Shown in pieces: positions 1 to 10,931 of a DNA stretch of 10,931 nucleotides. Both the position numbers and the translations under genes were made by a program. The notes beneath the pieces are model-generated. The model made no database searches. It had not been told where the DNA came from and saw only the letters and a program-made list of their open reading frames with translations. The stretch comes from a virus (Duplodnaviria > Heunggongvirae > Uroviricota > Caudoviricetes): IMG/VR virus record IMGVR_UViG_2663763377_000009; one strand, 5' to 3'. Position 1 is the first letter of the stretch; each line of letters opens with the position of its first letter.

Positions 1-1143
1 CTATGCTGTTTTGATATCTACGATAATCCAGTCTTTACCACGATCATCATTGTATCGGTCGGTCATTTTTCTGGATTTATGGCCTAACAACTTTTGCGTA
101 TCCAGACCCTGTTCCCGATATAACCGTTCTGACAGAGATCGCTGCTCATGAAATGTGGGCGCAGTTCCTTGCTCCCATTTTATGCCACATTTTTCCCGGG
201 CCTTTTTAAAAGCCGTTGTCAGAGTATTTGCAGAAACCTGGTCTCCTCTGTTTGCTTGAGAGGTAGTGTGACGGTAATGGACCAGATATTTACTAACAAC
301 AGCATCCCTGCACTGAGATATAACTTCACGAAGGGTAATATTCAGAGCATCGCATTTCAGGTTAAGCGGAATAGCAAGTTTTGAACCGGTTTTTTCCTGA
401 GTAATGTGCAACATGTCGTCCCATATATCAGAGAATTTCAAATTGCAGATATCGCCTAAACGTTGTCCAGTAACAAGAGCAAGTAGCATGCCGCATTTTA
501 AATAGGGCTGCCGTCTGCTTACGCTGTCAAATATTGCCTGCCATTCGGGCAGTGATAATCTTTGGCGGTTTACTCGATTTCGCGGTTGTTTTGTTGCCTG
601 CGCTGGGTTAAATCCTGGCGGAACATGTCCTGCGTGTTGTGCTTCTTTGAAGACGTCGATTAACACCATTCTCACGACTTGCGCCATCCTGTTATGACCT
701 TCAGCCTTTACAGCATCAATTATTTCGGCAATATCAAGTGCGGTAATATCCTTGAGGTGTTGTATTCCACAATGCTCACGGAAAAGACGAATGGGTTTGC
801 CTTTTTGCCGATAGGAGTTGGGTCTTAGTTCATTATGTTGCAGCCTGTCCTCCTGGATAGAAATATATTTATCAAGCCATTCTGTCACCGTAATGTCTGA
901 GCGCCTGCCTTTCATTCTTTCCAGACGCTCATTGACGCTTAATATTTGTCGGGTACGTTGTTCAGCAATAATGGTATTTGCTTCAGTAGCAACTTGTTTT
1001 GCTTCATTCTCATCAGTTCCTAAGCTATGAAAACGACCGGATAGTGGATGTTTGTATTGCCAATATACCTTTCCGGTTCGCTTATCTAATTTGCAATATA
1101 AATTGGGTATAGAGATTTTGTGAGATCGGGGTCTAGCAGCCAT
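1..1143 (-). CDS. int: Phage integrase, tyrosine recombinase (380 aa); stop codon at 1-3, so attP/attL should lie just outside the window
   Basis: Uninterrupted 380-aa ORF; C-terminal region carries the tyrosine-recombinase catalytic pattern (LVTGQRLGD ... HEQRSLSERLY ... LGHKSRKMTDRYNDD, i.e. R, H-x-x-R, H, Y); sits next to an overlapping xis-like gene as in lambda. Confidence 0.9.
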   Translation of the reverse strand: MAARPRSHKISIPNLYCKLDKRTGKVYWQYKHPLSGRFHSLGTDENEAKQVATEANTIIAEQRTRQILSVNERLERMKGRRSDITVTEWLDKYISIQEDRLQHNELRPNSYRQKGKPIRLFREHCGIQHLKDITALDIAEIIDAVKAEGHNRMAQVVRMVLIDVFKEAQHAGHVPPGFNPAQATKQPRNRVNRQRLSLPEWQAIFDSVSRRQPYLKCGMLLALVTGQRLGDICNLKFSDIWDDMLHITQEKTGSKLAIPLNLKCDALNITLREVISQCRDAVVSKYLVHYRHTTSQANRGDQVSANTLTTAFKKAREKCGIKWEQGTAPTFHEQRSLSERLYREQGLDTQKLLGHKSRKMTDRYNDDRGKDWIIVDIKTA

Positions 1144-1369
1144 CAGCGATTATCCGTTGGAGTTTTGGGTTTGCGTTTATTGGGAGTTGCGGTTCTGCAA
1201 GCGTTCCTACAAAACGGGAATTTCGGTCAATCATCCAGTAGCGACCAACTTTTATAGCGGGTGGGGCCATCATTTTCCCTTGCGCGTATTTTTTCAGAAC
1301 TCGCTCACTTGGTGCTAAGTCCCCAAATTCTTCTTTAGCCCAGTCCTGTAAAGTGATTAGTCGAGACAT
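1133..1369 (-). CDS. xis: Excisionase-like small DNA-binding protein (78 aa), overlapping the int start by 11 nt
   Basis: Small basic ORF immediately upstream of int with overlap, as for lambda xis-int; strong Shine-Dalgarno (GAGGAGG) 4-5 nt before the ATG on the minus strand; sequence recalled as the excisionase family of enterobacterial prophages. Confidence 0.75.
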   Translation of the reverse strand: MSRLITLQDWAKEEFGDLAPSERVLKKYAQGKMMAPPAIKVGRYWMIDRNSRFVGTLAEPQLPINANPKLQRIIADGC

Positions 1370-1508
1370 TTGTCCTCCTCTTAGCTGCTGAGGGAGTTTG
1401 TGACCGATATATCTGACATGATATTAAGCTCATGGCAGGTACATCTCTTGACTGGTCATAGAGATAAATTTAATGCTGAGAAATGCAGTATTGAATTTAT
1501 CAATTTTT

Positions 1509-1748
1509 CTATTTCCTGCGCATGTCACGTAACTTCTTAATGTGTTCTGCCGTTTCGATCTCTTCTGCTATCCGATCTGCATCAGCTTTATTCACAGGTT
1601 CAAAGTCATGATTAAAGCGGAACATGCTGGCGATACATGTTCTGCCTTTTCGGATGTAGTGAACTTTGTTGTGGGTAGAACGCAGGATTTTGCAGGGAGT
1701 GCCGTGGTGGTCGACGTACCAGGTGTTAGGGTCAATCACTCTGAACAT
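1509..1748 (-). CDS. Hypothetical small phage protein (79 aa), possibly DUF4222-like
   Basis: ORF in the leftward early operon, co-oriented and overlapping the next gene by 17 nt; family assignment is from memory only. Confidence 0.55.
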   Translation of the reverse strand: MFRVIDPNTWYVDHHGTPCKILRSTHNKVHYIRKGRTCIASMFRFNHDFEPVNKADADRIAEEIETAEHIKKLRDMRRK

Positions 1749-2061
1749 TCTTGACCTTGTGTTGTGCGGATTGATATTCAGTGCTGATATTCACCTTTAT
1801 AGCGAACACCTTTACCGGTTTATCGCCAAAGTGCGGATGTGTGATTGTCTTCACTTCATATCCGTCATACGGAACATCAATTCTGCGACTGGAATCGTCG
1901 CGCTTCGGATATCCCTTTGTGATAATCAGGCGGTCATATTCCCGGAACATAATTCGCTTATTCCAGTAGTCATTACACAAGCGATACTCTTCCGTTTTCT
2001 CTCCGCGAATCATGGCATCGAAGTATTCACTTTTAACAGCAAGTTGCAGGTTAGCCATCAC
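1732..2061 (-). CDS. ASCH/DUF3850-like (PUA-fold) protein, 109 aa
   Basis: N-terminal motif EYFDAMIRGEKTEEYR ... REYD resembles the ASCH/DUF3850 signature; start overlaps the upstream gene stop as ATGA. Confidence 0.55.
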   Translation of the reverse strand: MMANLQLAVKSEYFDAMIRGEKTEEYRLCNDYWNKRIMFREYDRLIITKGYPKRDDSSRRIDVPYDGYEVKTITHPHFGDKPVKVFAIKVNISTEYQSAQHKVKNVQSD

Positions 2062-2279
2062 TTAATCCCCCTTTGTTTGCGGATAAGCTCCAGATCTTGC
2101 TGGCAACTGGCGCAAGTACGACAACCCTGAACGGCCAGGCGTCTTCGTTCATCTATCGGATCGCCACACTCACAACAATGAGTGGCAGATACAGCCAGGT
2201 AGTTCAGGCGGCGCATTTTTATTGCTGTGTTGCGCTGTAATTCTTCTATTTCTGATGCTGAATCAATGATGTCTGCCAT
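2058..2279 (-). CDS. TraR/DksA-family C4 zinc-finger protein (73 aa)
   Basis: Four cysteines arranged CxxC ... CxxC (CCECGDPIDERRRLAVQGCRTCASC) in a ~70-aa protein, typical of phage TraR/DksA-like proteins. Confidence 0.65.
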   Translation of the reverse strand: MADIIDSASEIEELQRNTAIKMRRLNYLAVSATHCCECGDPIDERRRLAVQGCRTCASCQQDLELIRKQRGIK

Positions 2280-2285
2280 CTTTCA

Positions 2286-2375
2286 TTAATCCCTGAACTG
2301 TTGGTTAATACGCTTGAGGGCGAATGCGAATAATAAAAAAGGAGCCTGTAGCTCCATGATGATTTTGTTTTTCAT
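2286..2375 (-). CDS. Candidate 29-aa hydrophobic peptide (MKNKIIMELQAPFLLFAFALKRINQQFRD), not in the ORF track
   Basis: Hand translation of the minus strand; fills the gap between two genes, its ATG lies 2 nt after the upstream stop (TGAACATG), and its stop is 6 nt before the TraR-like start; hydrophobic core APFLLFAFAL. Confidence 0.3.
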   Translation of the reverse strand: MKNKIIMELQAPFLLFAFALKRINQQFRD

Positions 2376-2377
2376 GT

Positions 2378-2593
2378 TCACCGTTCCTTAAAGACGCCGT
2401 TTAACATGCCGATCGCCAGGCTTAAATGAGTCGGTGTGAATCCCATCAGCGTTACCGTTTCGCGGTGCTTCTTCAGTACGCTACGGCAAATGTCATCGAC
2501 GTTTTTATCCGGAAACTGCTGTCTGGCTTTTTTGATTTCATAATTAGCCTGACGGGCAATACTGCGAAGGGCGTTTTCTTGCTGAGGTGTCAT
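2378..2593 (-). CDS. Hypothetical early protein (71 aa from MTPQQ...; alternative 93-aa form would start at 2659)
   Basis: ORF co-oriented in the operon; start chosen at the internal ATG because the longer frame overlaps a better-looking small ORF; no family recognised. Confidence 0.5.
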   Translation of the reverse strand: MTPQQENALRSIARQANYEIKKARQQFPDKNVDDICRSVLKKHRETVTLMGFTPTHLSLAIGMLNGVFKER

Positions 2594-2673
2594 TGAACAA
2601 GTCCCATGTCGGCAAGCATAAGCACACAGAATATGAAGCCCGCTGCCAGAAAAATGCATTCAGTGGTTGTCAT
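2590..2673 (-). CDS. Candidate 27-aa hydrophobic peptide (MTTTECIFLAAGFIFCVLMLADMGLVQ)
   Basis: Hand translation; its stop overlaps the downstream ATG as ATGA (translational coupling geometry); membrane-helix-like composition. Confidence 0.25.
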   Translation of the reverse strand: MTTTECIFLAAGFIFCVLMLADMGLVQ

Positions 2674-2756
2674 ACCTGGTCTCTCTCATCTGCTTCTGCT
2701 TTCGCCACCATCATTTCCAGCTTTTGTGAAAGGGATGTGGCTAACGTATGAAATTC

Positions 2757-2861
2757 TTAGTCTGTTTCTACTGGTATTGGCACAAACCTGACTCCAATTT
2801 GAGCGAGGCTATGTGCCATCTCGATACTCGTTCTTAACTCAACGGGAGATGCTTTGTGCAT
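2757..2861 (-). CDS. Candidate 34-aa ORF (MHKASPVELRTSIEMAHSLAQIGVRFVPIPVETD)
   Basis: Hand translation; GAGGGG 4 nt upstream of the ATG; lies in an otherwise unassigned ~340-bp stretch downstream of exo. Confidence 0.2.
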   Translation of the reverse strand: MHKASPVELRTSIEMAHSLAQIGVRFVPIPVETD

Positions 2862-3012
2862 ACAGCCCCTCGTTTATTATTTATCTCCTAAGCCAGCCGC
2901 TGGGCTTTCAGTGGATTTTGGATAACAGAAAGGACGGGAAATACCCAGTCTCGCTTTGTAACGGAGTAGATGAAAGTGATCGCGCCTACCCGGATATTAT
3001 CGTGAGGGTGCG

Positions 3013-3693
3013 TCATCGCCATTGCTCCCCAAATACAAAACCAATTTCAGCCAGTGCCTCGTCCATTTTTTCGATGAACTCCGGCACCATCTCGTCAAAA
3101 CTCGCCATGTACTTTTCATCCCGCTCAACCACGACATAATGCAGTCCTTCACGCTTCATACGCGGGTCATAGTTGGCAAAGTACCAGGCATCTTTTCGTG
3201 TTACCCACATGCTGTACTGCACCTGGGCCATGTAAGCCGACTTTATGGCCTCGAAACCACCGAGCCGGAACTTCATGAAATCCCGGGAGGTAAACGGGCA
3301 TTTCAGCTCAAGGCCATTGCCGTCACTGCATAAACCATCGGGAGAGCAGGCGGTGCGCATACTTTCGTCGCGATAGATGATCGGGGATTCAGTAACATTC
3401 ACGCCGGAAGTGAATTCAAACAGGGTTCTGGCGTCGTTCTCGTACTGTTTTCCCCAGGCCAGCGCCTTAGCATTAACTTCCGGAGCCACACCGGTGCAAA
3501 CCTCAGCCAGCAGGGTGTGGAGGTAGGACATTTTCATGTCAGGCCACTTCTTTCCGGAGCGGGGTTTTGCTATCACGTTGTGAACTTCTGAAGCGGTGAT
3601 GACGCCGAGCCGTAATTTGTGCCACGCATCATCCCCCTGTTCGACAGCTCTCACATCGATCCCGGTACGCTGCAGGATAATGTCCGGTGTCAT
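3013..3693 (-). CDS. exo: Lambda exonuclease (Red-alpha), 226 aa
   Basis: Translation [40 protein letters not shown]... matches my recollection of phage lambda Exo almost residue for residue; same length; directly downstream of bet with ATGA overlap. Confidence 0.95.
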
Positions 3694-4475
3694 GCTGCCA
3701 CCTTCTGCTCTGCGGCTTTCTGTTTCAGGAATCCAAGAGCTTTTACTGCTTCGGCCTGTGTCAGTTCTGACGATGCACGAATGTCGCGGCGAAATATCTG
3801 GGAACAGAGTGGCAATAAGTCGTCATCCCATGTTTTATCCAGGGCGATCAGCAGAGTGTTAATCTCCTGCATGGTTTCATCGTTAACCGGAGTGATGTCG
3901 CGTTCCGGCTGGCGTTCTGCAGTGTATGCAGTATTTTCGACAATGCGCTCGGCTTCATCCTTGTCATAGATACCAGCAAATCCGAAGGCCAGACGGGCAC
4001 ACTGAATCATGGCTTTATGCCGTAACATTCGTTTGGGATGCGACTGCCACGGCCCCGTGATTTCTCTGCCTTCGCGAGTTTTGAATGGTTCGCGGCGGCA
4101 TTCATCCATCCATTCGGTAACGCAGATCGGATGATTACGGTCCTTGCGGTAAATCCGGCATGTACAGGATTCATTGTCCTGTTCAAAGTCCATGCCGTCA
4201 AACTGCTGGTTTTCGTTGATGATGCGGGACCAGCCATCAACGCCCACCACCGGAACGATGCCGTTCTGCTTATCAGGGAAGGCGTAAATTTCTTTCGTCC
4301 ACGGATTAAGGCCGTATTGGTTGGCGACGATCAGCAATGCGATGAACTGCGCATCGCTGGCATCGCCTTTAAATGCTGTCTGGCGAAGAGTGGTGATCAG
4401 TTCCTGTGGGTCGACAGAATCCATGCCGACACGTTCAGCCAGCTTCCCTGCCAGCGTTGCGAGTGCTGTACTCAT
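3690..4475 (-). CDS. bet: Lambda Beta single-strand annealing protein (Red-beta), 261 aa
   Basis: Translation [37 protein letters not shown]... matches recalled lambda Bet; length 261 aa; gam-bet-exo order. Confidence 0.95.
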
Positions 4476-4480
4476 CCGTT

Positions 4481-4777
4481 TTATACCTCTGAATCAATAT
4501 CAACCTGATGGTGAGCAATGGTTTCAACCATGTACCGGATGTGTTCTGCCATGCGCTCCTGAAACTCAACATCGTCATCAAACGCACGGGTAATGGCTTT
4601 TTTGCTGGCCCCGTGGCGTTGCAAATGATCGATGCATAGCGATTCAAACAGGTGCTGGGGCAGGCCTTTTTCCATGTCGTCTGCCAGTTCTGCCTCTTTC
4701 TCTTCACGGGCGATCTGCTGGTAGTGACGCGCCCAGCTTTGAGCCTCAAGACGATCCTGAATGTAATAAGCGTTCAT
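4481..4777 (-). CDS. gam: Gam, RecBCD inhibitor (98 aa, corresponds to the short GamS form)
   Basis: Translation [44 protein letters not shown]... matches recalled lambda GamS; AGGAG 8 nt upstream; only 75 nt separate it from the upstream gene, so no long GamL form is possible here. Confidence 0.9.
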
Positions 4778-4852
4778 GGCTGAACTCCTGAAAATGGCTG
4801 TGAAAATATCGCCCGCTAAATGCCAGGCTGATTAGGAAAACAGGAAAGGGGA

Positions 4853-5059
4853 TTAGTGATTCAGGCCGTTACCGCGTCCGTCGAGAAAAACTTCCACGAG
4901 CAAATCACGGGTATAAGTGCGCTCGATGCCGCGATGCAGATAAAGCCGTCCGCGTAAATTAGCTGATGCAGTCCAGGTACCATCTTTGTGTTTGACCAGC
5001 ATTCCTGGCATGACCGCACCTCGATTAACGGTCTGCGTTCCGTAATGTTGATGAACCAT
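4853..5059 (-). CDS. Hypothetical 68-aa protein at the position lambda uses for kil (MVHQHYGTQTVNRGAVMPGMLVKHKDGTW...)
   Basis: Start chosen at the internal ATG preceded by AGGAG plus 5 nt; the longer 136-aa frame in the track begins with TTG and has no ribosome-binding site. Function is by synteny only. Confidence 0.5.
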   Translation of the reverse strand: MVHQHYGTQTVNRGAVMPGMLVKHKDGTWTASANLRGRLYLHRGIERTYTRDLLVEVFLDGRGNGLNH

Positions 5060-5336
5060 AAAAACTCCTGCCCGTAAGCTGGGCTGCTGAACATATAGAG
5101 ACTTCTGCGCGTATTCAGGCGGTGGATGGCCGCCGGTTGTCATAACTAAGCCGCCTCGTTGAAGCGACTGAGGTATGAGGTGTTGAGTTGATTTCAGCTG
5201 GTCACACCGACGTTCACACGTCCGTTTCACCCCTCGCACTCCCCGGAGCCTGCTGAAATTCAAGCTGCGGATCTAAGCGGTCATCGCAACGGTGAATCAG
5301 GTGGTTGCCGTATCGTTGTGTTGTTGCGATGAACTC

Positions 5337-5365
5337 ATTTAAAACTATAGTTGTTTTACCGTCAA
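5337..5365 (-). promoter_or_regulatory. Putative pL promoter with embedded OL operator (-35 TTGACG, 17-nt spacer, -10 TTAAAT, read on the minus strand)
   Basis: Minus-strand segment gttgTTGACGgtaaaacaactatagttTTAAATgagttc is nearly colinear with the PR segment gttgTTGACTaaaaacaaccatagtttTAATCTtgattc; both carry GTTGTT/AACAAC dyads. Confidence 0.5.
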
Positions 5366-5500
5366 CAACAAAAGTTGTTTCATTGGTTGTTTTAGATATA
5401 ACTGGTTGTATTTAGGATGGATTTATTTTGTGACTTGCATCGCATAGCGATAACTGAAGCGGGGGGTATGGTGGTTTTTTGAACGGTGTGTGATGAGGGG

Positions 5501-5531
5501 AGGCAAAAGAAAACCCGGCACGACGGCCGGG
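5501..5531 (-). terminator. Rho-independent terminator ending the cI to cassette transcript (lambda t-imm equivalent)
   Basis: 6-bp GC stem CCCGGC/GCCGGG with a 6-nt loop, followed on the minus strand by TTTTCTTTTG, 9 nt after the stop of the 168-aa gene. Confidence 0.6.
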
Positions 5532-5539
5532 GAGGGGGG

Positions 5540-6046
5540 TCATTTTAATCTATCAAGGAGTGACTCTCTTTCCTTCTTCTCTGATTCTCTTCGGTTTAAT
5601 AACGCTTTAAACTCTTGAAGCTCAACCATTATTTTATGAACGAATACACTGGTATAGAGAGAAATAAAGAGTAATCCACCTGAAATTTTTAAGACCCTGA
5701 AGAGTAGGGCTTGATCATTTGTGCTTGCTATTAACCCCAAGATTACAAACAAAGTTGAAAATACATAGAAAGCTAATAATAAAACCAATTTCAGTCTCTT
5801 GGATTTGACTATTGGCACTAATCGCCTAACCTCACTAGGGGTTAAAGACGAGTGGTCATTGGCCTCATTTGCCTTAAAAATGGCTTGTATACAATATGAT
5901 AATGGCAATTGCATGAGTCCAACCACAGCCCACGGAGCAGTTAGGACAACACCCGGTGTAATATAGCCCAATGCTGACTTGAACAAAAAGTAACCAGCAA
6001 AATAGAAGACCAACATACCAATAAGGTGGATGATGTTCGATTTCAT
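5540..6046 (-). CDS. Small integral membrane protein, 168 aa, about four predicted transmembrane helices and a charged C-terminal tail; occupies the rexB position
   Basis: Hydrophobic stretches IIHLIGMLVFYFAGYFLF, GVVLTAPWAVVGLMQLPL, LKLVLLLAFYVFSTLFVILGLIAS, LLFISLYTSVFV; strong AAGGAGG 7 nt upstream of the ATG; AT-rich codon usage unlike flanking genes; no similarity to RexB that I can see. Confidence 0.75.
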   Translation of the reverse strand: MKSNIIHLIGMLVFYFAGYFLFKSALGYITPGVVLTAPWAVVGLMQLPLSYCIQAIFKANEANDHSSLTPSEVRRLVPIVKSKRLKLVLLLAFYVFSTLFVILGLIASTNDQALLFRVLKISGGLLFISLYTSVFVHKIMVELQEFKALLNRRESEKKERESLLDRLK

Positions 6047-6067
6047 TATCGCCCTCCTTTTGGTAGG

Positions 6068-7090
6068 TTATTTTGCAACCAATTCTCCGGCATCAAGTTT
6101 TGAGAACAGCCACTTATGCATTTTTAAGAATAAATCATTTTCATCAATAATGCCATTGTTATATTCAACGCTAATTTTTCCGGATAATTTTATCTCTTTT
6201 CCCGTTATTTCCCCACCGCCTTGAAGTTTGATGCTAATATCATCCTCATCTAGATGTCGTAGTGAGGTAGCAATACTGTCTATAACAGCTTGACCGCTAT
6301 CATTTGTTTTTCTGAAGTATGTAATCTCGAGGCTTACTTGTAAATTGGCCTCATCTAATGAATCTTTAATGTTTATATCATTTGCCCAGTTATCGCCAAA
6401 AAATGCTTTTAGTAGCGCACCTCCTTTCCCTATTGGGCGGTATTTTATTGTCTTCACCGAACCATTTGAAAAGGAGGGTGTTTGGTTCTCTGAATTTTTA
6501 ACTTCTGAAGTAATGGGTAATCCACCAATTTTTATGCTCTTGGCTGGTGCTTTCTCCATTTTTTTCATCGTTTCTTCGGATGGCTTATCTTGAAGCATTA
6601 ACACAGATTCTTTTTCATCTGTGAATGTATTAATTAGCCAATTCAAATGCGCCTCAAGCTCCCTTGCTCGAAGCGATGTGGATTGAACGATCATGACATG
6701 GTTGTTTAGTACACCAAAATATAAAATTGAATCTACAAACTCTCTTTTTTTGTCACTACGTTTATCTCCATCAATAATTATATCATTAGACGTGATGGAG
6801 TTAATGTCATAAAATTTAACATTATCACTAAGCTCTAATAGAGACTGGCTTTTGTCTTTTTCAAATAAAACCAGTTGCCCAAAAAGTATAGTTTTGTATG
6901 TGTCGCTTTTATTTAAGAAACGACACCCCGAATTTTCATCTGAAGGTGTTATTTTTTCTTGTCTACTAAGTACTTTTTCTGCAACGCCGCCCTCACCTAT
7001 AATACTAAGTAGTATGTTTTGTAATGATGATTTGCTGTGTGGGATTACTGCTTTTTTATAATGAACGACTTTTTGTCTGTTATCTTTCAT
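6068..7090 (-). CDS. Unknown soluble protein, 340 aa; occupies the rexA position downstream of the repressor
   Basis: Long uninterrupted ORF, Lys/Asp/Asn/Ile-rich, no catalytic motif recognised; separated by 21 nt from the downstream membrane protein gene, suggesting one operon. Confidence 0.75.
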   Translation of the reverse strand: MKDNRQKVVHYKKAVIPHSKSSLQNILLSIIGEGGVAEKVLSRQEKITPSDENSGCRFLNKSDTYKTILFGQLVLFEKDKSQSLLELSDNVKFYDINSITSNDIIIDGDKRSDKKREFVDSILYFGVLNNHVMIVQSTSLRARELEAHLNWLINTFTDEKESVLMLQDKPSEETMKKMEKAPAKSIKIGGLPITSEVKNSENQTPSFSNGSVKTIKYRPIGKGGALLKAFFGDNWANDINIKDSLDEANLQVSLEITYFRKTNDSGQAVIDSIATSLRHLDEDDISIKLQGGGEITGKEIKLSGKISVEYNNGIIDENDLFLKMHKWLFSKLDAGELVAK

Positions 7091-7147
7091 TGCTATAGTC
7101 CAACTAGTATTGAATAAATAAACACAGTAAAGACATAAAAATTTCTT

Positions 7148-7177
7148 ATAGCTACCGATAACGTAATCGGTAGCTAT
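7148..7177. promoter_or_regulatory. Perfect 12-bp inverted repeat ATAGCTACCGAT (loop aacgta) ATCGGTAGCTAT between the repressor gene and the cassette
   Basis: Read directly: 7148-7159 is the reverse complement of 7166-7177. On the minus-strand RNA the hairpin is followed by AAGAAATTTTTAT, so it may be a partial terminator or attenuator, or else a protein-binding palindrome. Confidence 0.4.
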
Positions 7178-7212
7178 TACAAATCAACCAAAGGTAATTC
7201 TTTACATACTAC

Positions 7213-7902
7213 CTACCCATGCTTCCTGTAGGTCTGCGGCATGCTCCCAATAACTTTCCCGAAGATAAACACCCGGTTCATCTCGTCTTTCTCAATTGGG
7301 TCCCACGGCGAGTAGCTCTTGTTATCAGAGATAACCAGTAGCTTATCCTTCATCATTTGCAGGCGCTTTACATGGGCTGTGTCGTCGTACAGAAACGCAT
7401 AGATACCATCACCGTCGAAAGATTTAACTGTGATATCAACGAACAGCAGATCACCTGGTTCGATCGTTCCTGACATGCTGTCACCACGCACGTTAATGAT
7501 GCGGATATTTTCCGCCTTCCTACCATCGAACATGTGACGAGCATCGTCAAACGAGTACTCAACCGAGCGTAGAACTTCTACAAACTCACGGTTGATGACT
7601 CCCGGCCCAGCACTGACTTCTATATCAAGAACGTCAATCTTAAAGTATTTGGAATGGCTGACAGTTGATAGTATTGGTTGCACTGTACTGTCTGACATAT
7701 TTCCAACGCCAGAAGATAACCATTCTGCGCGCACACCCAAAGCGTTCGCGATCTCCACGATTTTAGTTGTTTGGTTAGCTTTCCCTGTTTCGATTTTCTG
7801 AATAGCAGCTTGGCTAACCCCGACCAAATCCCCAAGCGCCTTTTGTGTAAGGCCTCGCGCTAATCTGGCTTCTTTAAGTCTTTCTGAGAGTGTTGTTTTC
7901 AT
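7213..7902 (-). CDS. cI-like prophage repressor, 229 aa: N-terminal HTH (XRE type) plus C-terminal S24 LexA-like autopeptidase domain
   Basis: HTH region LTQKALGDLVGVSQAAIQKIETGK; S24 signature GDSM ... VKRL (Ser/Lys dyad); divergent from a Cro-like gene across an operator region. Start set at 7902 because the 22-codon extension to 7968 would run through the PR promoter. Confidence 0.85.
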   Translation of the reverse strand: MKTTLSERLKEARLARGLTQKALGDLVGVSQAAIQKIETGKANQTTKIVEIANALGVRAEWLSSGVGNMSDSTVQPILSTVSHSKYFKIDVLDIEVSAGPGVINREFVEVLRSVEYSFDDARHMFDGRKAENIRIINVRGDSMSGTIEPGDLLFVDITVKSFDGDGIYAFLYDDTAHVKRLQMMKDKLLVISDNKSYSPWDPIEKDEMNRVFIFGKVIGSMPQTYRKHG

Positions 7903-7908
7903 AGTCCA

Positions 7909-7937
7909 AATGTACAACCAAGGTTTTATTCCATCAA
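7909..7937 (-). promoter_or_regulatory. Putative PRM (-35 TTGATG, 17-nt spacer, -10 TACATT on the minus strand), predicted start site at or beside the cI ATG (leaderless)
   Basis: Hexamers read from the sequence; the -10 ends 6 nt before the ATG at 7902, and there is no Shine-Dalgarno, mirroring lambda PRM/cI. Confidence 0.4.
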
Positions 7938-7943
7938 ACGAAA

Positions 7944-7979
7944 ATGGTTGTTGACTAAAAACAACCATAGTTTTAATCT
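7944..7979 (+). promoter_or_regulatory. PR promoter (-35 TTGACT 7951-7956, -10 TAATCT 7974-7979) overlapping a 9-bp-arm dyad operator ATGGTTGTT (gactaaa) AACAACCAT
   Basis: Inverted repeat 7944-7952 / 7960-7968 read directly; 17-nt spacer; GGAGG 5 nt before the ATG at 8007. Confidence 0.55.
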
Positions 7980-8006
7980 TGATTCAAATTAACCACGGAG
8001 GTTGTT

Positions 8007-8237
8007 ATGAACCCAGCTATCAAAACAGCGATCAATATCGTTGGTTCACAAAAGAAACTGGGCGCTGCCTGCGAAGTTTCACAGCAGGCCGTCTATAAGT
8101 GGCTTCACAACAAAGCAAAGGTATCCCCTGAACATGTCGGCAGCATTGTTACGGCTACTGGTGGAGTAGTGAAGGCATACCAGATTCGCCCGGATCTTCC
8201 GAAGTTGTTTCCACACACCGAAAAGAACGCAGCTTAA
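8007..8237 (+). CDS. Cro-like HTH regulator of the YdaS family (76 aa)
   Basis: Divergent from the repressor; motif AINIVGSQKKLGAACEVSQQAVYKWL ... ATGG resembles YdaS-type small HTH proteins of E. coli prophages. Confidence 0.8.
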   Translation: MNPAIKTAINIVGSQKKLGAACEVSQQAVYKWLHNKAKVSPEHVGSIVTATGGVVKAYQIRPDLPKLFPHTEKNAA

Positions 8238-8249
8238 ATTTCCATTTCA

Positions 8250-8262
8250 CGCTCTTTAACAA
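8250..8262 (+). promoter_or_regulatory. boxA element CGCTCTTTAACAA (nutR-like position between the cro and cII analogues)
   Basis: Matches the boxA consensus (rrn boxA GCTCTTTAACAA; lambda nut boxA CGCTCTTA...). No GC-rich boxB-like hairpin is evident directly downstream. Confidence 0.5.
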
Positions 8263-8306
8263 TAAGCAATCAACTTAACAGTCAATTCAAACTAAAGGAG
8301 TCAATT

Positions 8307-8846
8307 ATGCAACCACTTACATACCAACAGACTAGCGGATTTAGCCCGACTGCGGTGATAAATCGTTCTCAAACAAAACAGGTGCCAGGCCACGAAAAAA
8401 TCCGTGATGCCGTCCGCGCCTGGTCGGCTGAAGATAATCAGGATGTCGTTGCCACACTCATTGTGAATGAGTATCGGGAGCAGGGCGGCGGCGCCATCGA
8501 TTTCCCTGATGATGTCAGCCGTGCACGCCAGAAGCTGTTCCGCTTCCTCGATAACAAATTCGATTCTGAAAAATACCGAAATAACGTGCGTGAACTGACC
8601 CCGGCAATTCTGGCGGTACTACCGCTGGAATATCGCGGTTACCTGGTTGAGCAGGATAGCTTCATGGCTAGGTTGGCTGAAATGGAAAAGGAACTCAGTG
8701 AGGCAAAACAGGCTGTCATTCTCAACGCACCACGCCACCAGAAACTGAAGGAGATGAGTGAAGGTATTGTGTCGATGTTTCGTGTGGACCCGGATCTGGC
8801 TGGTCCATTGATGGCGATGGTTACCACCATGTTGGGGGCAATATGA
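8307..8846 (+). CDS. YdaT-family protein (179 aa), cII functional analogue candidate
   Basis: Motifs EYREQGGGAIDFP and LTPAILAVLPLEYRGYL resemble recalled YdaT of the Rac and CP-933P prophages; located where lambda has cII; AAGGAG 6 nt upstream. Confidence 0.7.
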   Translation: MQPLTYQQTSGFSPTAVINRSQTKQVPGHEKIRDAVRAWSAEDNQDVVATLIVNEYREQGGGAIDFPDDVSRARQKLFRFLDNKFDSEKYRNNVRELTPAILAVLPLEYRGYLVEQDSFMARLAEMEKELSEAKQAVILNAPRHQKLKEMSEGIVSMFRVDPDLAGPLMAMVTTMLGAI

Positions 8847-8932
8847 CAGGCTCAGAAATGGCGAAAGCCGGTCTGCGGGAACAGAGCCGACTTTCAGGTG
8901 CAAATCGTAACACACTCATTGCGGGAGGAATT

Positions 8933-9862
8933 ATGGCAAACACTGCTGAGATATTCAATTTTCCAGTGCCGGATGTGGCACAAAAGGAGCCGCGCGTGGC
9001 AGATCTCGATGATGGTTATACGCGCATTGCAAATGAGTTGCTGGAAGCTGTGATGCTGGCCGGATTAACACAGCACCAGCTTCTGGTCTTCCTGGCTGTC
9101 ATGCGCAAAACATATGGCTTTAATAAAAAACTGGATTGGGTGAGCAACGAGCAACTTTCCGAGTTGACCGGGATATTGCCGCACAAGTGTTCTGCTGCAA
9201 AAAGTGTTCTGGTAAAGCGTGGGATTTTTATTCAGAGCGGGCGGAATATCGGCATTAATAATGTGGTCAGTGAATGGTCAACATTACCCGAATCAGGTAA
9301 GAAAAATAAAGTTTACCTGAAAGAGGTAAATTTACCTGAATCAGGTAAGAAAAGTTTACCCAAATCAGGTAAAGACGTTTACCCGAATCAGGTAAACACA
9401 AAAGACAAACTAACAAAAGACAATATAAAACCTTTTTCGTCCGAGAATTCTGGCGAATCCTCTGACCAGCCAGAAAACGATCTTCCTGTGGTGAAACCGG
9501 ATGCTGCAATTCAGAGCGGCAGCAAGTGGGGGACAGCAGAAGACCTGACCGCCGCAGAGTGGATGTTTGACATGGTGAAGACCATCGCGCCATCAGCCAG
9601 AAAACCGAATTTTGCAGGGTGGGCCAACGACATCCGCCTGATGCGTGAGCGTGACGGGCGTAACCATCGCGACATGTGCGTTCTGTTCCGCTGGGCCTGC
9701 CAGGACAACTTCTGGTCCGGTAACGTGCTGAGTCCAGCAAAACTCCGCGACAAGTGGACTCAGCTCGAAATTAACCGCAACAAGCAACAGGCTGGTGTGA
9801 CTGCCAGCAAACCAAAACTCGACCTGACAAACACTGACTGGATTTACGGGGTGGAGCTATGA
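8933..9862 (+). CDS. O: Replication initiator protein O (309 aa from MANTAEIFNF...; an in-frame ATG at 8843 would add 30 codons)
   Basis: C-terminal half (ENSGESSDQPENDLPVVKPDAAIQSGSKWGTAEDLTAAEWMFDMVKTIAPSARKPNFAGWANDIRLMRERDGRNHRDMCVLFRWACQDNFWSGNVLSPAKLRDKWTQLEINRNKQQAGVTASKPKLDLTNTDWIYGVEL) matches recalled lambda O; GGGAGGAA RBS before 8933; contains the iteron array. Confidence 0.9.
   Translation: MANTAEIFNFPVPDVAQKEPRVADLDDGYTRIANELLEAVMLAGLTQHQLLVFLAVMRKTYGFNKKLDWVSNEQLSELTGILPHKCSAAKSVLVKRGIFIQSGRNIGINNVVSEWSTLPESGKKNKVYLKEVNLPESGKKSLPKSGKDVYPNQVNTKDKLTKDNIKPFSSENSGESSDQPENDLPVVKPDAAIQSGSKWGTAEDLTAAEWMFDMVKTIAPSARKPNFAGWANDIRLMRERDGRNHRDMCVLFRWACQDNFWSGNVLSPAKLRDKWTQLEINRNKQQAGVTASKPKLDLTNTDWIYGVEL
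9285..9440. repeat. Phage origin of replication: five ~18-19-bp iterons (consensus about TTTACCCGAATCAGGTAA) followed by an AT-rich segment
   Basis: Direct repeats at about 9285-9302, 9312-9330, 9332-9349, 9355-9374 and 9378-9397, then acaaaagacaaactaacaaaagacaatataaaacc; lies inside O, as in lambda. Confidence 0.8.
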
Positions 9863-10449
9863 AAAATATTGCCGCGCAGATGATTAACTTTGACCGTGAG
9901 CAGATGCGTCGAATCGCCAACAACATGCCGGAACAATACGACGAAAAGCCGCAGGTGCAGCAGGTGGCGCAGATCATCAACGGTGTGTTCAGCCAGCTGC
10001 TTGCGACATTTCCGGCAAGCCTCGCGAACCGCGACCAGAACGAGCTGAACGAAATCCGCCGTCAGTGGGTTATGGCTTTCCGTGAAAATGGAATTACCAC
10101 TATGGAGCAGGTTAACGCCGGAATGCGCGTGGCCCGCCGACAGGAGCGACCATTCCTGCCGTCGCCCGGCCAGTTCGTAGCGTGGTGTAAGCAGAGTGGC
10201 GGGGCGTTAGGTATCACTGTTGACCAAGTCATAACCGAATACTGGGATTGGCGTAATCGTTCCTTCGAATTCACTTCCAGCGAGCATTTCCCGTGGTCAC
10301 AGCCTGTCATGTACCACATCTGCGTCGAACTGCGCCACCGCAGCACAGAGCGCCAGTTAACGCATGGTGAGCTGGCGCGTGAAGCCGGCGATCTGCTGGA
10401 CATGTGGGAGAGGCGCGTCACCGAGGGCAAACCAGTACCGCCTGTATAG
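9859..10449 (+). CDS. P: Replication protein P homologue (196 aa), N-terminal ~110 aa lambda-like, C-terminal half divergent and apparently shorter than lambda P
   Basis: MKNIAAQMINFDREQMRRIANNMPEQYDEKPQVQQVAQIINGVFSQLLATFPASLANRDQNE... matches recalled lambda P up to about FVAWC; the rest aligns only loosely; start overlaps the O stop (ATGA). Confidence 0.8.
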   Translation: MKNIAAQMINFDREQMRRIANNMPEQYDEKPQVQQVAQIINGVFSQLLATFPASLANRDQNELNEIRRQWVMAFRENGITTMEQVNAGMRVARRQERPFLPSPGQFVAWCKQSGGALGITVDQVITEYWDWRNRSFEFTSSEHFPWSQPVMYHICVELRHRSTERQLTHGELAREAGDLLDMWERRVTEGKPVPPV

Positions 10450-10510
10450 TAAAATACTATATTATTTTCTATGTATCACATGCACAGCGATAAAACCGGA
10501 TAAATGATTT

Positions 10511-10542
10511 ACACTGTAAAGATCTATCTGTCTTTACAGTGT
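10511..10542. promoter_or_regulatory. Perfect 12-bp inverted repeat ACACTGTAAAGA (8-nt spacer) TCTTTACAGTGT, ~30 bp upstream of the hicA promoter
   Basis: Read directly; no U-tract follows on the plus strand, so an operator (for example for HicB) or a structural element is as likely as a terminator for P. Confidence 0.4.
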
Positions 10543-10570
10543 GGTTCAGAAGTCATGCGAATGAAATAAT

Positions 10571-10599
10571 TTGCTTTTGTGTGTATGCGTGTGTATAAT
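10571..10599 (+). promoter_or_regulatory. Strong sigma-70 promoter for hicAB (-35 TTGCTT, 17-nt spacer, TG-extended -10 TATAAT)
   Basis: Perfect TATAAT at 10594-10599 with TG at -15/-14; GGGAGG RBS at 10613-10618 before the hicA ATG. Confidence 0.6.
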
Positions 10600-10622
10600 T
10601 GTTTTCAGGTTAGGGAGGACAT

Positions 10623-10805
10623 ATGAAATCTGCTGACCTGTTGAAAGAACTGATAGCTGCTGGTTGCGAGTTGAAACGGCATAAGGCAAGCAGTCACCAG
10701 ATATGGTGGTCGCCAATAACAGGAAAAACTTTTCCTGTTCCTCATCCTAAAAAGGACTTGCCGCTAGGTACTGTCAGATCGATCAAAAAAATGGCGGGGA
10801 TTTAA
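10623..10805 (+). CDS. hicA: HicA-family toxin (mRNA interferase), 60 aa
   Basis: MKSADLLKELIAAGCELKRHKASSHQIWWSPITGKTFPVPHPKKDLPLGTVRSIKKMAGI fits the HicA/YcfA pattern (ELxRxKGSH ... VPxHxxKDLxxGTxxSIxKxAG). Confidence 0.85.
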   Translation: MKSADLLKELIAAGCELKRHKASSHQIWWSPITGKTFPVPHPKKDLPLGTVRSIKKMAGI

Positions 10806-10829
10806 TCCCCGCCGACTTTGGAGGTAGCC

Positions 10830-10931
10830 ATGTTCTTTTCTGTTGGTGTCGAAACACCGAAAGATGATCATACAGCATACGGTATCACTGTTCCGGTTTT
10901 TGATTGCTTTGATTTTGGATGTGTTTCTGCT
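10830..10931 (+). CDS. hicB: HicB-family antitoxin, 5-prime partial (runs off the window end)
   Basis: N-terminus MFFSVGVETPKDDHTAYGITVPVFDCFDFGC... fits the HicB N-terminal pattern (YxVxxE...GYxVxVPDLPGC); GGAGG 5 nt upstream; directly after hicA. Confidence 0.7.
   Translation, partial: MFFSVGVETPKDDHTAYGITVPVFDCFDFGCVSA

Follow-up and report, generated by a model that had tools for sequence, protein, structure and literature searches.

The hicAB cassette at the end of a lambdoid prophage contig is best explained as part of the HicA^T B addiction module of IncI2 plasmids

Introduction

The closest described relative of the locus reported here is the HicA^T B module of the IncI2 reference plasmid pHNSHP45 (NZ_KP347127), which has been characterised experimentally (Lin et al., Nucleic Acids Res 2025, PMC11878559). 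HicA of pHNSHP45 is toxic and bacteriostatic, and its partner HicB neutralises the toxin, is stable and represses the promoter. The mRNA of hicA is ~10-fold more abundant than that of hicB, and a 13-bp deletion of the hairpin between the two genes equalises hicA and hicB RNA, raises HicB and abolishes the advantage that the module confers in plasmid competition. Strand-specific RNA-seq in the same study located the termination on the plus strand. These experiments were performed in a plasmid context and not in a prophage. Removal of the module from pHNSHP45 left resistance to various lytic phages unchanged.

The chromosomal hicAB of E. coli K-12 is a more remote relative, with ~20% protein identity. 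As outlined in PMC11878559, following the model of Turnbull and Gerdes, it shares the toxin-first gene order and a HicB-repressed promoter with a very short leader; in that outline, and unlike the IncI2 module, it lacks a terminator between the two genes and is regulated in favour of the antitoxin rather than the toxin. Distant relatives of known structure are HicAB of Burkholderia pseudomallei (PDB 6g26, 4c26) and HicA3B3 of Yersinia pestis (PDB 4p78), whose toxins belong to the same HicA fold family. The HicB proteins of these systems likewise combine an N-terminal HicB-like domain with a C-terminal ribbon-helix-helix DNA-binding domain. To our knowledge, no internal terminator has been described for Burkholderia or Yersinia HicAB. 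A comparison of another kind is offered by the morons of the lambda ren/nin region, which are located downstream of O and P and carry their own promoter.

The window analysed here is a stretch of 10,931 nucleotides, which constitutes the last 10.9 kb of contig AOQX01000038.1 from a draft E. coli assembly (GCA_000397665.1); the contig ends at position 10931. An earlier, sequence-only reading had interpreted a hicAB pair at the right-hand end of this window as a phage moron at the ren position. Considering the evidence as a whole, the best explanation (probability about 0.85) is that positions 10445-10931 are the left-hand portion of a type II toxin-antitoxin cassette, HicA^T B, that belongs to IncI2 conjugative plasmids, and not a phage-adapted moron. 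The cassette and the role of its hairpin are already known as the published HicA^T B module, and the only unusual thing at this locus is a unique junction between P and hicA.

Results

The window is composed of prophage and IncI2 plasmid DNA

Contig AOQX01000038.1 carries a lambdoid prophage adjoining icd, and in the window the prophage genes run from the integrase through recombination genes to a cI-like repressor, YdaS/YdaT, O and finally P. Positions 1-10444 are 100.0% identical over their full length to prophages in many complete genomes, and the icd-integrated prophage to which they correspond is common. Two minus-strand genes, encoding 340 and 168 aa (5540-7090), immediately follow the cI-like repressor, where lambda carries rexA-rexB. 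Pfam and PADLOC scans returned no match for either gene, and they are possible uncharacterised accessory or defence genes of the prophage.

The remaining 487 nt of the window (10445-10931) are identical at every position to the 59.8-kb conjugative plasmid pSTEC2018_607-d. The same segment is identical to pHNSHP45 at 475/487 nt; the hairpin and hicA are unchanged in that plasmid, and 11 of the 12 differences are located upstream of the promoter. Both plasmids encode the same RefSeq HicA (WP_000833470.1) and the same RefSeq HicB (WP_000466318.1). When hicAB only was used as a query against 5,426 complete E. coli genomes, 382 of the 383 places were found on plasmids and one was chromosomal. The exact HicA protein was indexed in 25,469 blocks of an assembly collection, and among the 10 matches listed, from the 67 longest contigs read, all were situated in an IncI2 backbone.

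Deleted forms of the cassette also occur in the IncI2 group. Many mcr-1-type IncI2 plasmids (e.g. L007, p2018-10-2CC, 1290-1900) have lost the promoter and hicA, the deletion extending from just past the 12-bp palindrome described below to the loop of the hairpin. Variants of the L007 type retain a 99-aa hicB remnant and carry a second, unrelated hicAB pair upstream.

The genes and the stop-codon hairpin correspond to HicA^T B

The toxin gene hicA (60 aa) occupies 10623-10805 on the plus strand, and is preceded by a ribosome-binding site, GGAGG (10614-10618), which fits the description in PMC11878559. Its DNA is identical to that of the plasmid locus L001, taken from the identical plasmid. Since WP_000833470.1 is shared by L001 and the pHNSHP45 locus L099, and the window DNA is 100% identical to L001, the HicA of the window is the pHNSHP45 protein. 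The hicA product matched the Pfam profile HicA_toxin (PF07927) with 58 bits against a cut-off of 27, covering profile positions 2-58 of 58, and the best match to a PDB HicA had an E value of 1.7e-8. The antitoxin gene hicB begins with the ATG at 10830, downstream of a second GGAGG (10820-10824; PMC11878559), and is represented by its first 34 codons (10830-10931, plus strand) because the contig stops at 10931. These codons are identical to the plasmid gene, which in full encodes 145 aa and matched PF15919 (HicB_lk_antitox) with 93.6 bits (cut-off 27). Matches in the PDB to the Burkholderia and Yersinia proteins had E values of 1e-11 and 5e-5, respectively, for HicB and of 2e-8 and 5e-5 for HicA. 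Profile searches had been proposed as a check on the identity of the two genes, and these results support their assignment as hicA and hicB.

The toxin gene comes first, and the 24-bp spacer between the end of hicA (10805) and the hicB ATG (10830) is as described for HicA^T B. The G/C-rich inverted repeat that had been noted around the hicA stop codon is present at 10793-10813, with arms GGCGGGGA and TCCCCGCC enclosing the TAA at 10803-10805. The structure can be extended to a 9-bp G/C-rich stem (10793-10801 / 10805-10813) with a 3-nt loop (10802-10804), and on its 3' side are found GAC, then UUU (10817-10819), then the GGAGG of hicB. RNA folding, which had also been proposed for this junction, gave -20.8 kcal/mol (z = -3.1), and the hairpin is identical in pHNSHP45. 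The element as a whole (10793-10819, plus strand) is the hicA-specific noncanonical intrinsic terminator, identified here by repeat and folding analysis and experimentally in PMC11878559. A scan for canonical intrinsic terminators, requiring at least 5 U in 8 nt, made no call on the plus strand, where the tail reads GACUUUGG, and called the minus strand only; the weak plus-strand U tail agrees with the published label 'noncanonical'.

The window and the pHNSHP45 module have in common the HicA protein, the gene order, the 24-bp spacer, the G/C hairpin with UUU, and GGAGG before both genes. They differ in that the cassette of the window has been severed from its plasmid at 10445, where it meets a truncated phage P, and in that the remainder of hicB and a distal canonical terminator lie outside the window. 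In the identical plasmid this distal terminator, a hairpin followed by U8, is located after hicB at L001 ~11474-11500. Because the window matches every published element and the hairpin is identical, the earlier suggestion that the hairpin could tune the ratio of toxin to antitoxin is correct and has already been demonstrated, in the same cassette in pHNSHP45 (PMC11878559). The direction of the tuning is also published: the toxin is raised, transcription being ended before hicB.

The internal hairpin (GGCGGGGAT..ATCCCCGCC, 10793-10813) and the distal hicB terminator (ATCCCCGC..GCGGGGAT, L001 11474-11494) share their 8-mers, but in exchanged order. Pairing between the two structures across hicB is conceivable in principle.

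The junction between P and hicA

Gene P, which encodes a lambda-type replication protein (Pfam Phage_lambda_P, 167 bits), is truncated in the window (9859-10449, plus strand). A three-way alignment located the breakpoint between prophage-identical DNA (1-10444) and IncI2-plasmid-identical DNA (10445-10931) at 10444/10445. As the switch from prophage to plasmid falls inside P, the product is 196 aa in length, compared with 237 aa (714 nt) for the otherwise 100% identical gene of E. coli 536, and its stop codon, TAG (10447-10449), comes from the plasmid-derived side. The join has cost P 41 aa. The cassette had been described as sitting directly after the replication genes; what it adjoins is a P cut short at 10444/10445.

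The breakpoint exhibits microhomology of at most 1 nt, and no IS end, att site or duplication was detected there in the three-way alignment. None of 5,426 complete E. coli genomes contained the junction, and an exact 30-nt junction probe gave 0 matches in the metagenome contig collection. A Logan contig (L004) encoding the same 196-aa product was considered as support from a second sample and rejected, as the contig is cut off and its DNA reads on as a normal P. Two loci, L102 and L103, end at the same hicB codon, and a recurrent breakpoint was considered; two such coincidences are expected by chance and no inference was drawn, because >25,000 blocks of the collection carry this hicA.

In plasmid L001 a promoter-like sequence, TTAAAA-17-TATAGT (10620-10652), is located upstream of the palindrome and points to hicA. 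The TATAGT is found at 10445-10450 of the window, beginning exactly at the breakpoint, and its -35 is therefore missing from the window.

The cassette came to adjoin the prophage either by a single illegitimate recombination event or through a chimeric assembly. If the join is chimeric, created in the library or during assembly, the strain would contain the icd prophage and a separate IncI2 plasmid, and the end of the contig would have been wrongly extended into plasmid sequence. This explanation has a substantial chance of being right, if somewhat below even. Both parents are very common and each side of the join is 100% identical to its parent; the same prophage and an IncI2 hicAB plasmid were found together in at least one complete genome, that of strain GABEEC10; and only 487 bp separate the junction from the end of the contig. 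The near absence of microhomology and the lack of an IS, att site or duplication at the join point in the same direction, as do the absence of the junction from the complete genomes and the metagenome collection and the reading of the sole other 196-aa P record as a cut-off normal P. Conversely, assemblers seldom join sequences that share no k-mer, and IncI2 backbones were found within very large contigs (L012, L014), and therefore integration happens. A real junction would signify that a lambdoid prophage has very recently captured a toxin-biased plasmid addiction module, in which long-leader hicA transcripts would arise only from pR read-through on induction; we consider this unlikely.

The promoter region and the upstream palindrome

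The hicAB promoter (10571-10599, plus strand) is composed of a -35 TTGCTT (10571-10576), a 17-nt spacer and a -10 TATAAT (10594-10599). Its earlier description as near-consensus is appropriate for the -10, which is a perfect TATAAT, and the promoter is strongly conserved in relatives; the -35, however, matches the consensus at 3/6 positions, and the hicAB promoter was not called in a consensus promoter scan of the window.

Tandem GTGTGTAT repeats (10579-10586 and 10589-10596, plus strand, 10-nt spacing) extend over the spacer and the -10. Of the unique promoters of the family, 70 of 84 contained tandem GTGTGTAT, as did 53 of 70 unique viral loci, compared with none in the 428 kb of DNA flanking the promoters; the loci behind these counts are L019-L098 (genomes) and L104-L183 (IMG/VR). 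It is the most conserved non-coding element of the hicAB family, and this conservation makes it the best candidate for the operator of the ribbon-helix-helix HicB. The main text of PMC11878559 was not found to mention the GTGTGTAT repeat. Additional copies in inverted orientation (ATACACAC) occur upstream of the GTGTGTAT repeats at several loci.

The perfect 12-bp palindrome that had been reported upstream of the promoter is present at 10511-10542. Its arms, ACACTGTAAAGA (10511-10522) and TCTTTACAGTGT (10531-10542), are 100% complementary and are separated by an 8-nt spacer (10523-10530); folded as RNA, the region gave -21.6 kcal/mol (z = -6.1 vs shuffles). A repeat search recovered the palindrome as an inverted repeat; it is formed by a pair of TTTACAnTGTAAA-type sites (10508-10542), which represent a plasmid site family. 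In an alignment with IncX4, IncF and phage alleles homology begins only at the -35, and the palindrome is absent there; among 80 genome loci it was absent except in one IncI2-like contig. The arms are invariant in IncI2 variants and the spacer occurs in four forms. One IncI2 contig (L017) has undergone a natural 25-bp deletion between direct TTTACAnTGT repeats, in the region homologous to 10515-10539, which collapses the palindrome and leaves hicAB intact.

The palindrome had been put forward as a HicB operator or an insulator. It is probably not the operator, being absent outside the IncI2 lineage and lost from L017, which keeps hicAB, with tandem GTGTGTAT conserved instead. Since its stem lacks a U tract on the 3' side, the palindrome was also discounted as an intrinsic terminator or insulator.

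The distribution of TTTACAnTGTAAA sites points to the plasmid backbone. The 22-kb locus L001 contains 11 sites compared with 2.0 expected, a number reached by 0/100 shuffles; across the whole 59.8-kb plasmid the 11 sites compare with 5.5 in block shuffles, for which the maximum was 11, and the enrichment at this scale is modest. All 11 are located in the first ~21 kb of the plasmid, which is the maintenance region. At least four are clustered upstream of a parA-like gene, and a second pair is found 140 bp upstream of the pair in the window. CTTTACnnTGTAAAG sites in the IncI2 maintenance region were observed at L001 5915-6015, 9970, 10571-10608 and 10710-10745, with a cluster upstream of the parA/MipZ-like gene, and their arrangement looks like a type Ib partition centromere/operator. 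The parA-like gene is followed by a gene for a 94-aa protein (WP_001162371.1) with a weak match to RHH_1 (E 0.003, below cut-off). The palindrome belongs to the IncI2 backbone and is probably recognised by a plasmid regulator or partition protein. Its assignment to a family of IncI2 backbone sites, made by sequence comparison, goes beyond the literature.

Carriage by phages and the proposed moron

The view of hicAB as a moron that a phage carries at the ren position, with the palindrome as HicB operator or insulator and an anti-phage or prophage-stabilising function, appears very improbable and has largely been refuted. The cassette does resemble the lambda ren/nin morons in being downstream of O and P and in having its own promoter. 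Relatives with 46-66% HicB identity are also common in prophage-like IMG/VR contigs of other bacteria, and in 12 of 80 IMG/VR loci (L104-L183) a lambda-P homologue is located no more than 4 kb from hicB, although adjacent to it in none; the family is therefore one that phages normally carry, although no record of the phage collection had this allele. Unlike the lambda morons, however, the cassette is not a self-contained insertion between intact phage genes, since the join lies inside a P that lacks 41 codons, and recurrence in related phages or prophages was not observed. A search of 50,697 phage records produced no near match to the cassette, the closest phage HicB being that of Pasteurella phage Pmp4 at 44% identity. 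The allele is the IncI2 plasmid one, with a single chromosomal place against 382 on plasmids, the junction inside P was found nowhere else, and the conservation of hicAB does not extend to the palindrome, which a natural variant does without and which has no U tract after it. An anti-phage role found no support: PADLOC models gave no HicA or HicB match at E <= 0.01, and the published deletion of the module had no effect on lytic phage resistance.

Conservation of the hairpin and its strand

The conservation of the hairpin was assessed in relatives. Unique homologous junctions (56, from 80 species-representative genomes) gave a mean folding energy of -12.7 kcal/mol, compared with -8.1 kcal/mol for shuffled 3' parts, and 30 of them were at p<=0.05 when each sequence was folded against its shuffles. 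The hairpin was found in most of the 56 junctions and some lineages were without it; among unique IMG/VR loci, 62 of 70 had a hairpin of <= -12 kcal/mol. The swap control was weak, native combinations being better than swapped ones in only 56% of pairs. When the junctions were aligned with MAFFT free of gaps, the 3' arms fell out of register and RNAalifold for this reason predicted no structure; per-sequence folding with shuffle and swap controls was used instead.

Compensatory changes were observed in several lineages. In Rahnella, Cedecea, Rosenbergiella, Enterobacter sp. and phage Pmp4, where the coding arm has GCA in place of GCG, a C of the non-coding arm is replaced by T; in Buttiauxella a C-to-T replacement goes with GGA in place of GGG. 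G.U wobbles, in sequences read by eye, favour the plus strand in ~6 lineages to 2. Beyond the literature, these comparisons extend the conservation of the stop-codon hairpin and tandem GTGTGTAT, with compensatory changes, to ~150 relatives on chromosomes, plasmids and prophages, which span Enterobacterales, Aeromonadales and a Pasteurella phage.

It is highly improbable that the hairpin acts mainly on the minus strand, as a canonical terminator of an antisense RNA covering the hicB ribosome-binding site: the minus-strand call of the terminator scan (stem, then A and U7), the use of AAA for the stem-adjoining Lys codon in essentially all homologues having Lys there, and an Rfam match to ncS025 with a 5' hairpin, anti-SD and terminator (minus strand, 10785-10860; 28.3 bits, below the gathering threshold of 46) would fit such an RNA, but the scan found no minus-strand promoter, the one hexamer that resembles a -10, TATGAT (10871-10866), lacks conservation in the IncX4 and IncF alleles, the hairpin is kept in homologues that have no A run, wobble pairing favours the plus strand and the published strand-specific RNA-seq reports plus-strand termination. 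Membership of 10785-10860 in the ncS025 family was rejected, the match being sub-threshold and reflecting generic sRNA anatomy; NcS25 is an unrelated sRNA that regulates porins in trans.

Discussion

The data presented here are consistent with the following working of the IncI2 cassette. HicA is a small ribonuclease-type toxin, which HicB neutralises while repressing the promoter, toxicity, neutralisation and repression all being published. Transcription would begin from TTGCTT/TATAAT, where HicB likely acts at the tandem GTGTGTAT over the -10, as its conservation suggests. The G/C hairpin around the hicA stop codon, with the UUU that follows, ends most transcripts before hicB, and because of this termination the toxin message exceeds the antitoxin message ~10-fold, making the module addictive in plasmid-plasmid competition, as has been published. 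The palindrome would stand outside the hicAB unit and would have travelled along as flanking plasmid DNA.

The main value of this analysis is negative. A seemingly novel hairpin in a prophage toxin-antitoxin locus is the internal terminator already published for the HicA^T B addiction module of IncI2 plasmids, and the presumed prophage setting depends on a single unverified junction beside a contig end.

If the junction is real, the break took the C-terminus of P and the sequence upstream of the plasmid -10-like TATAGT (10445-10450). The consequence would be either a high-toxin toxin-antitoxin module coupled to prophage induction or the stabilisation of a replication-defective prophage. Should the junction be verified, it would provide an example of the transfer of an addiction module from a plasmid to a prophage.
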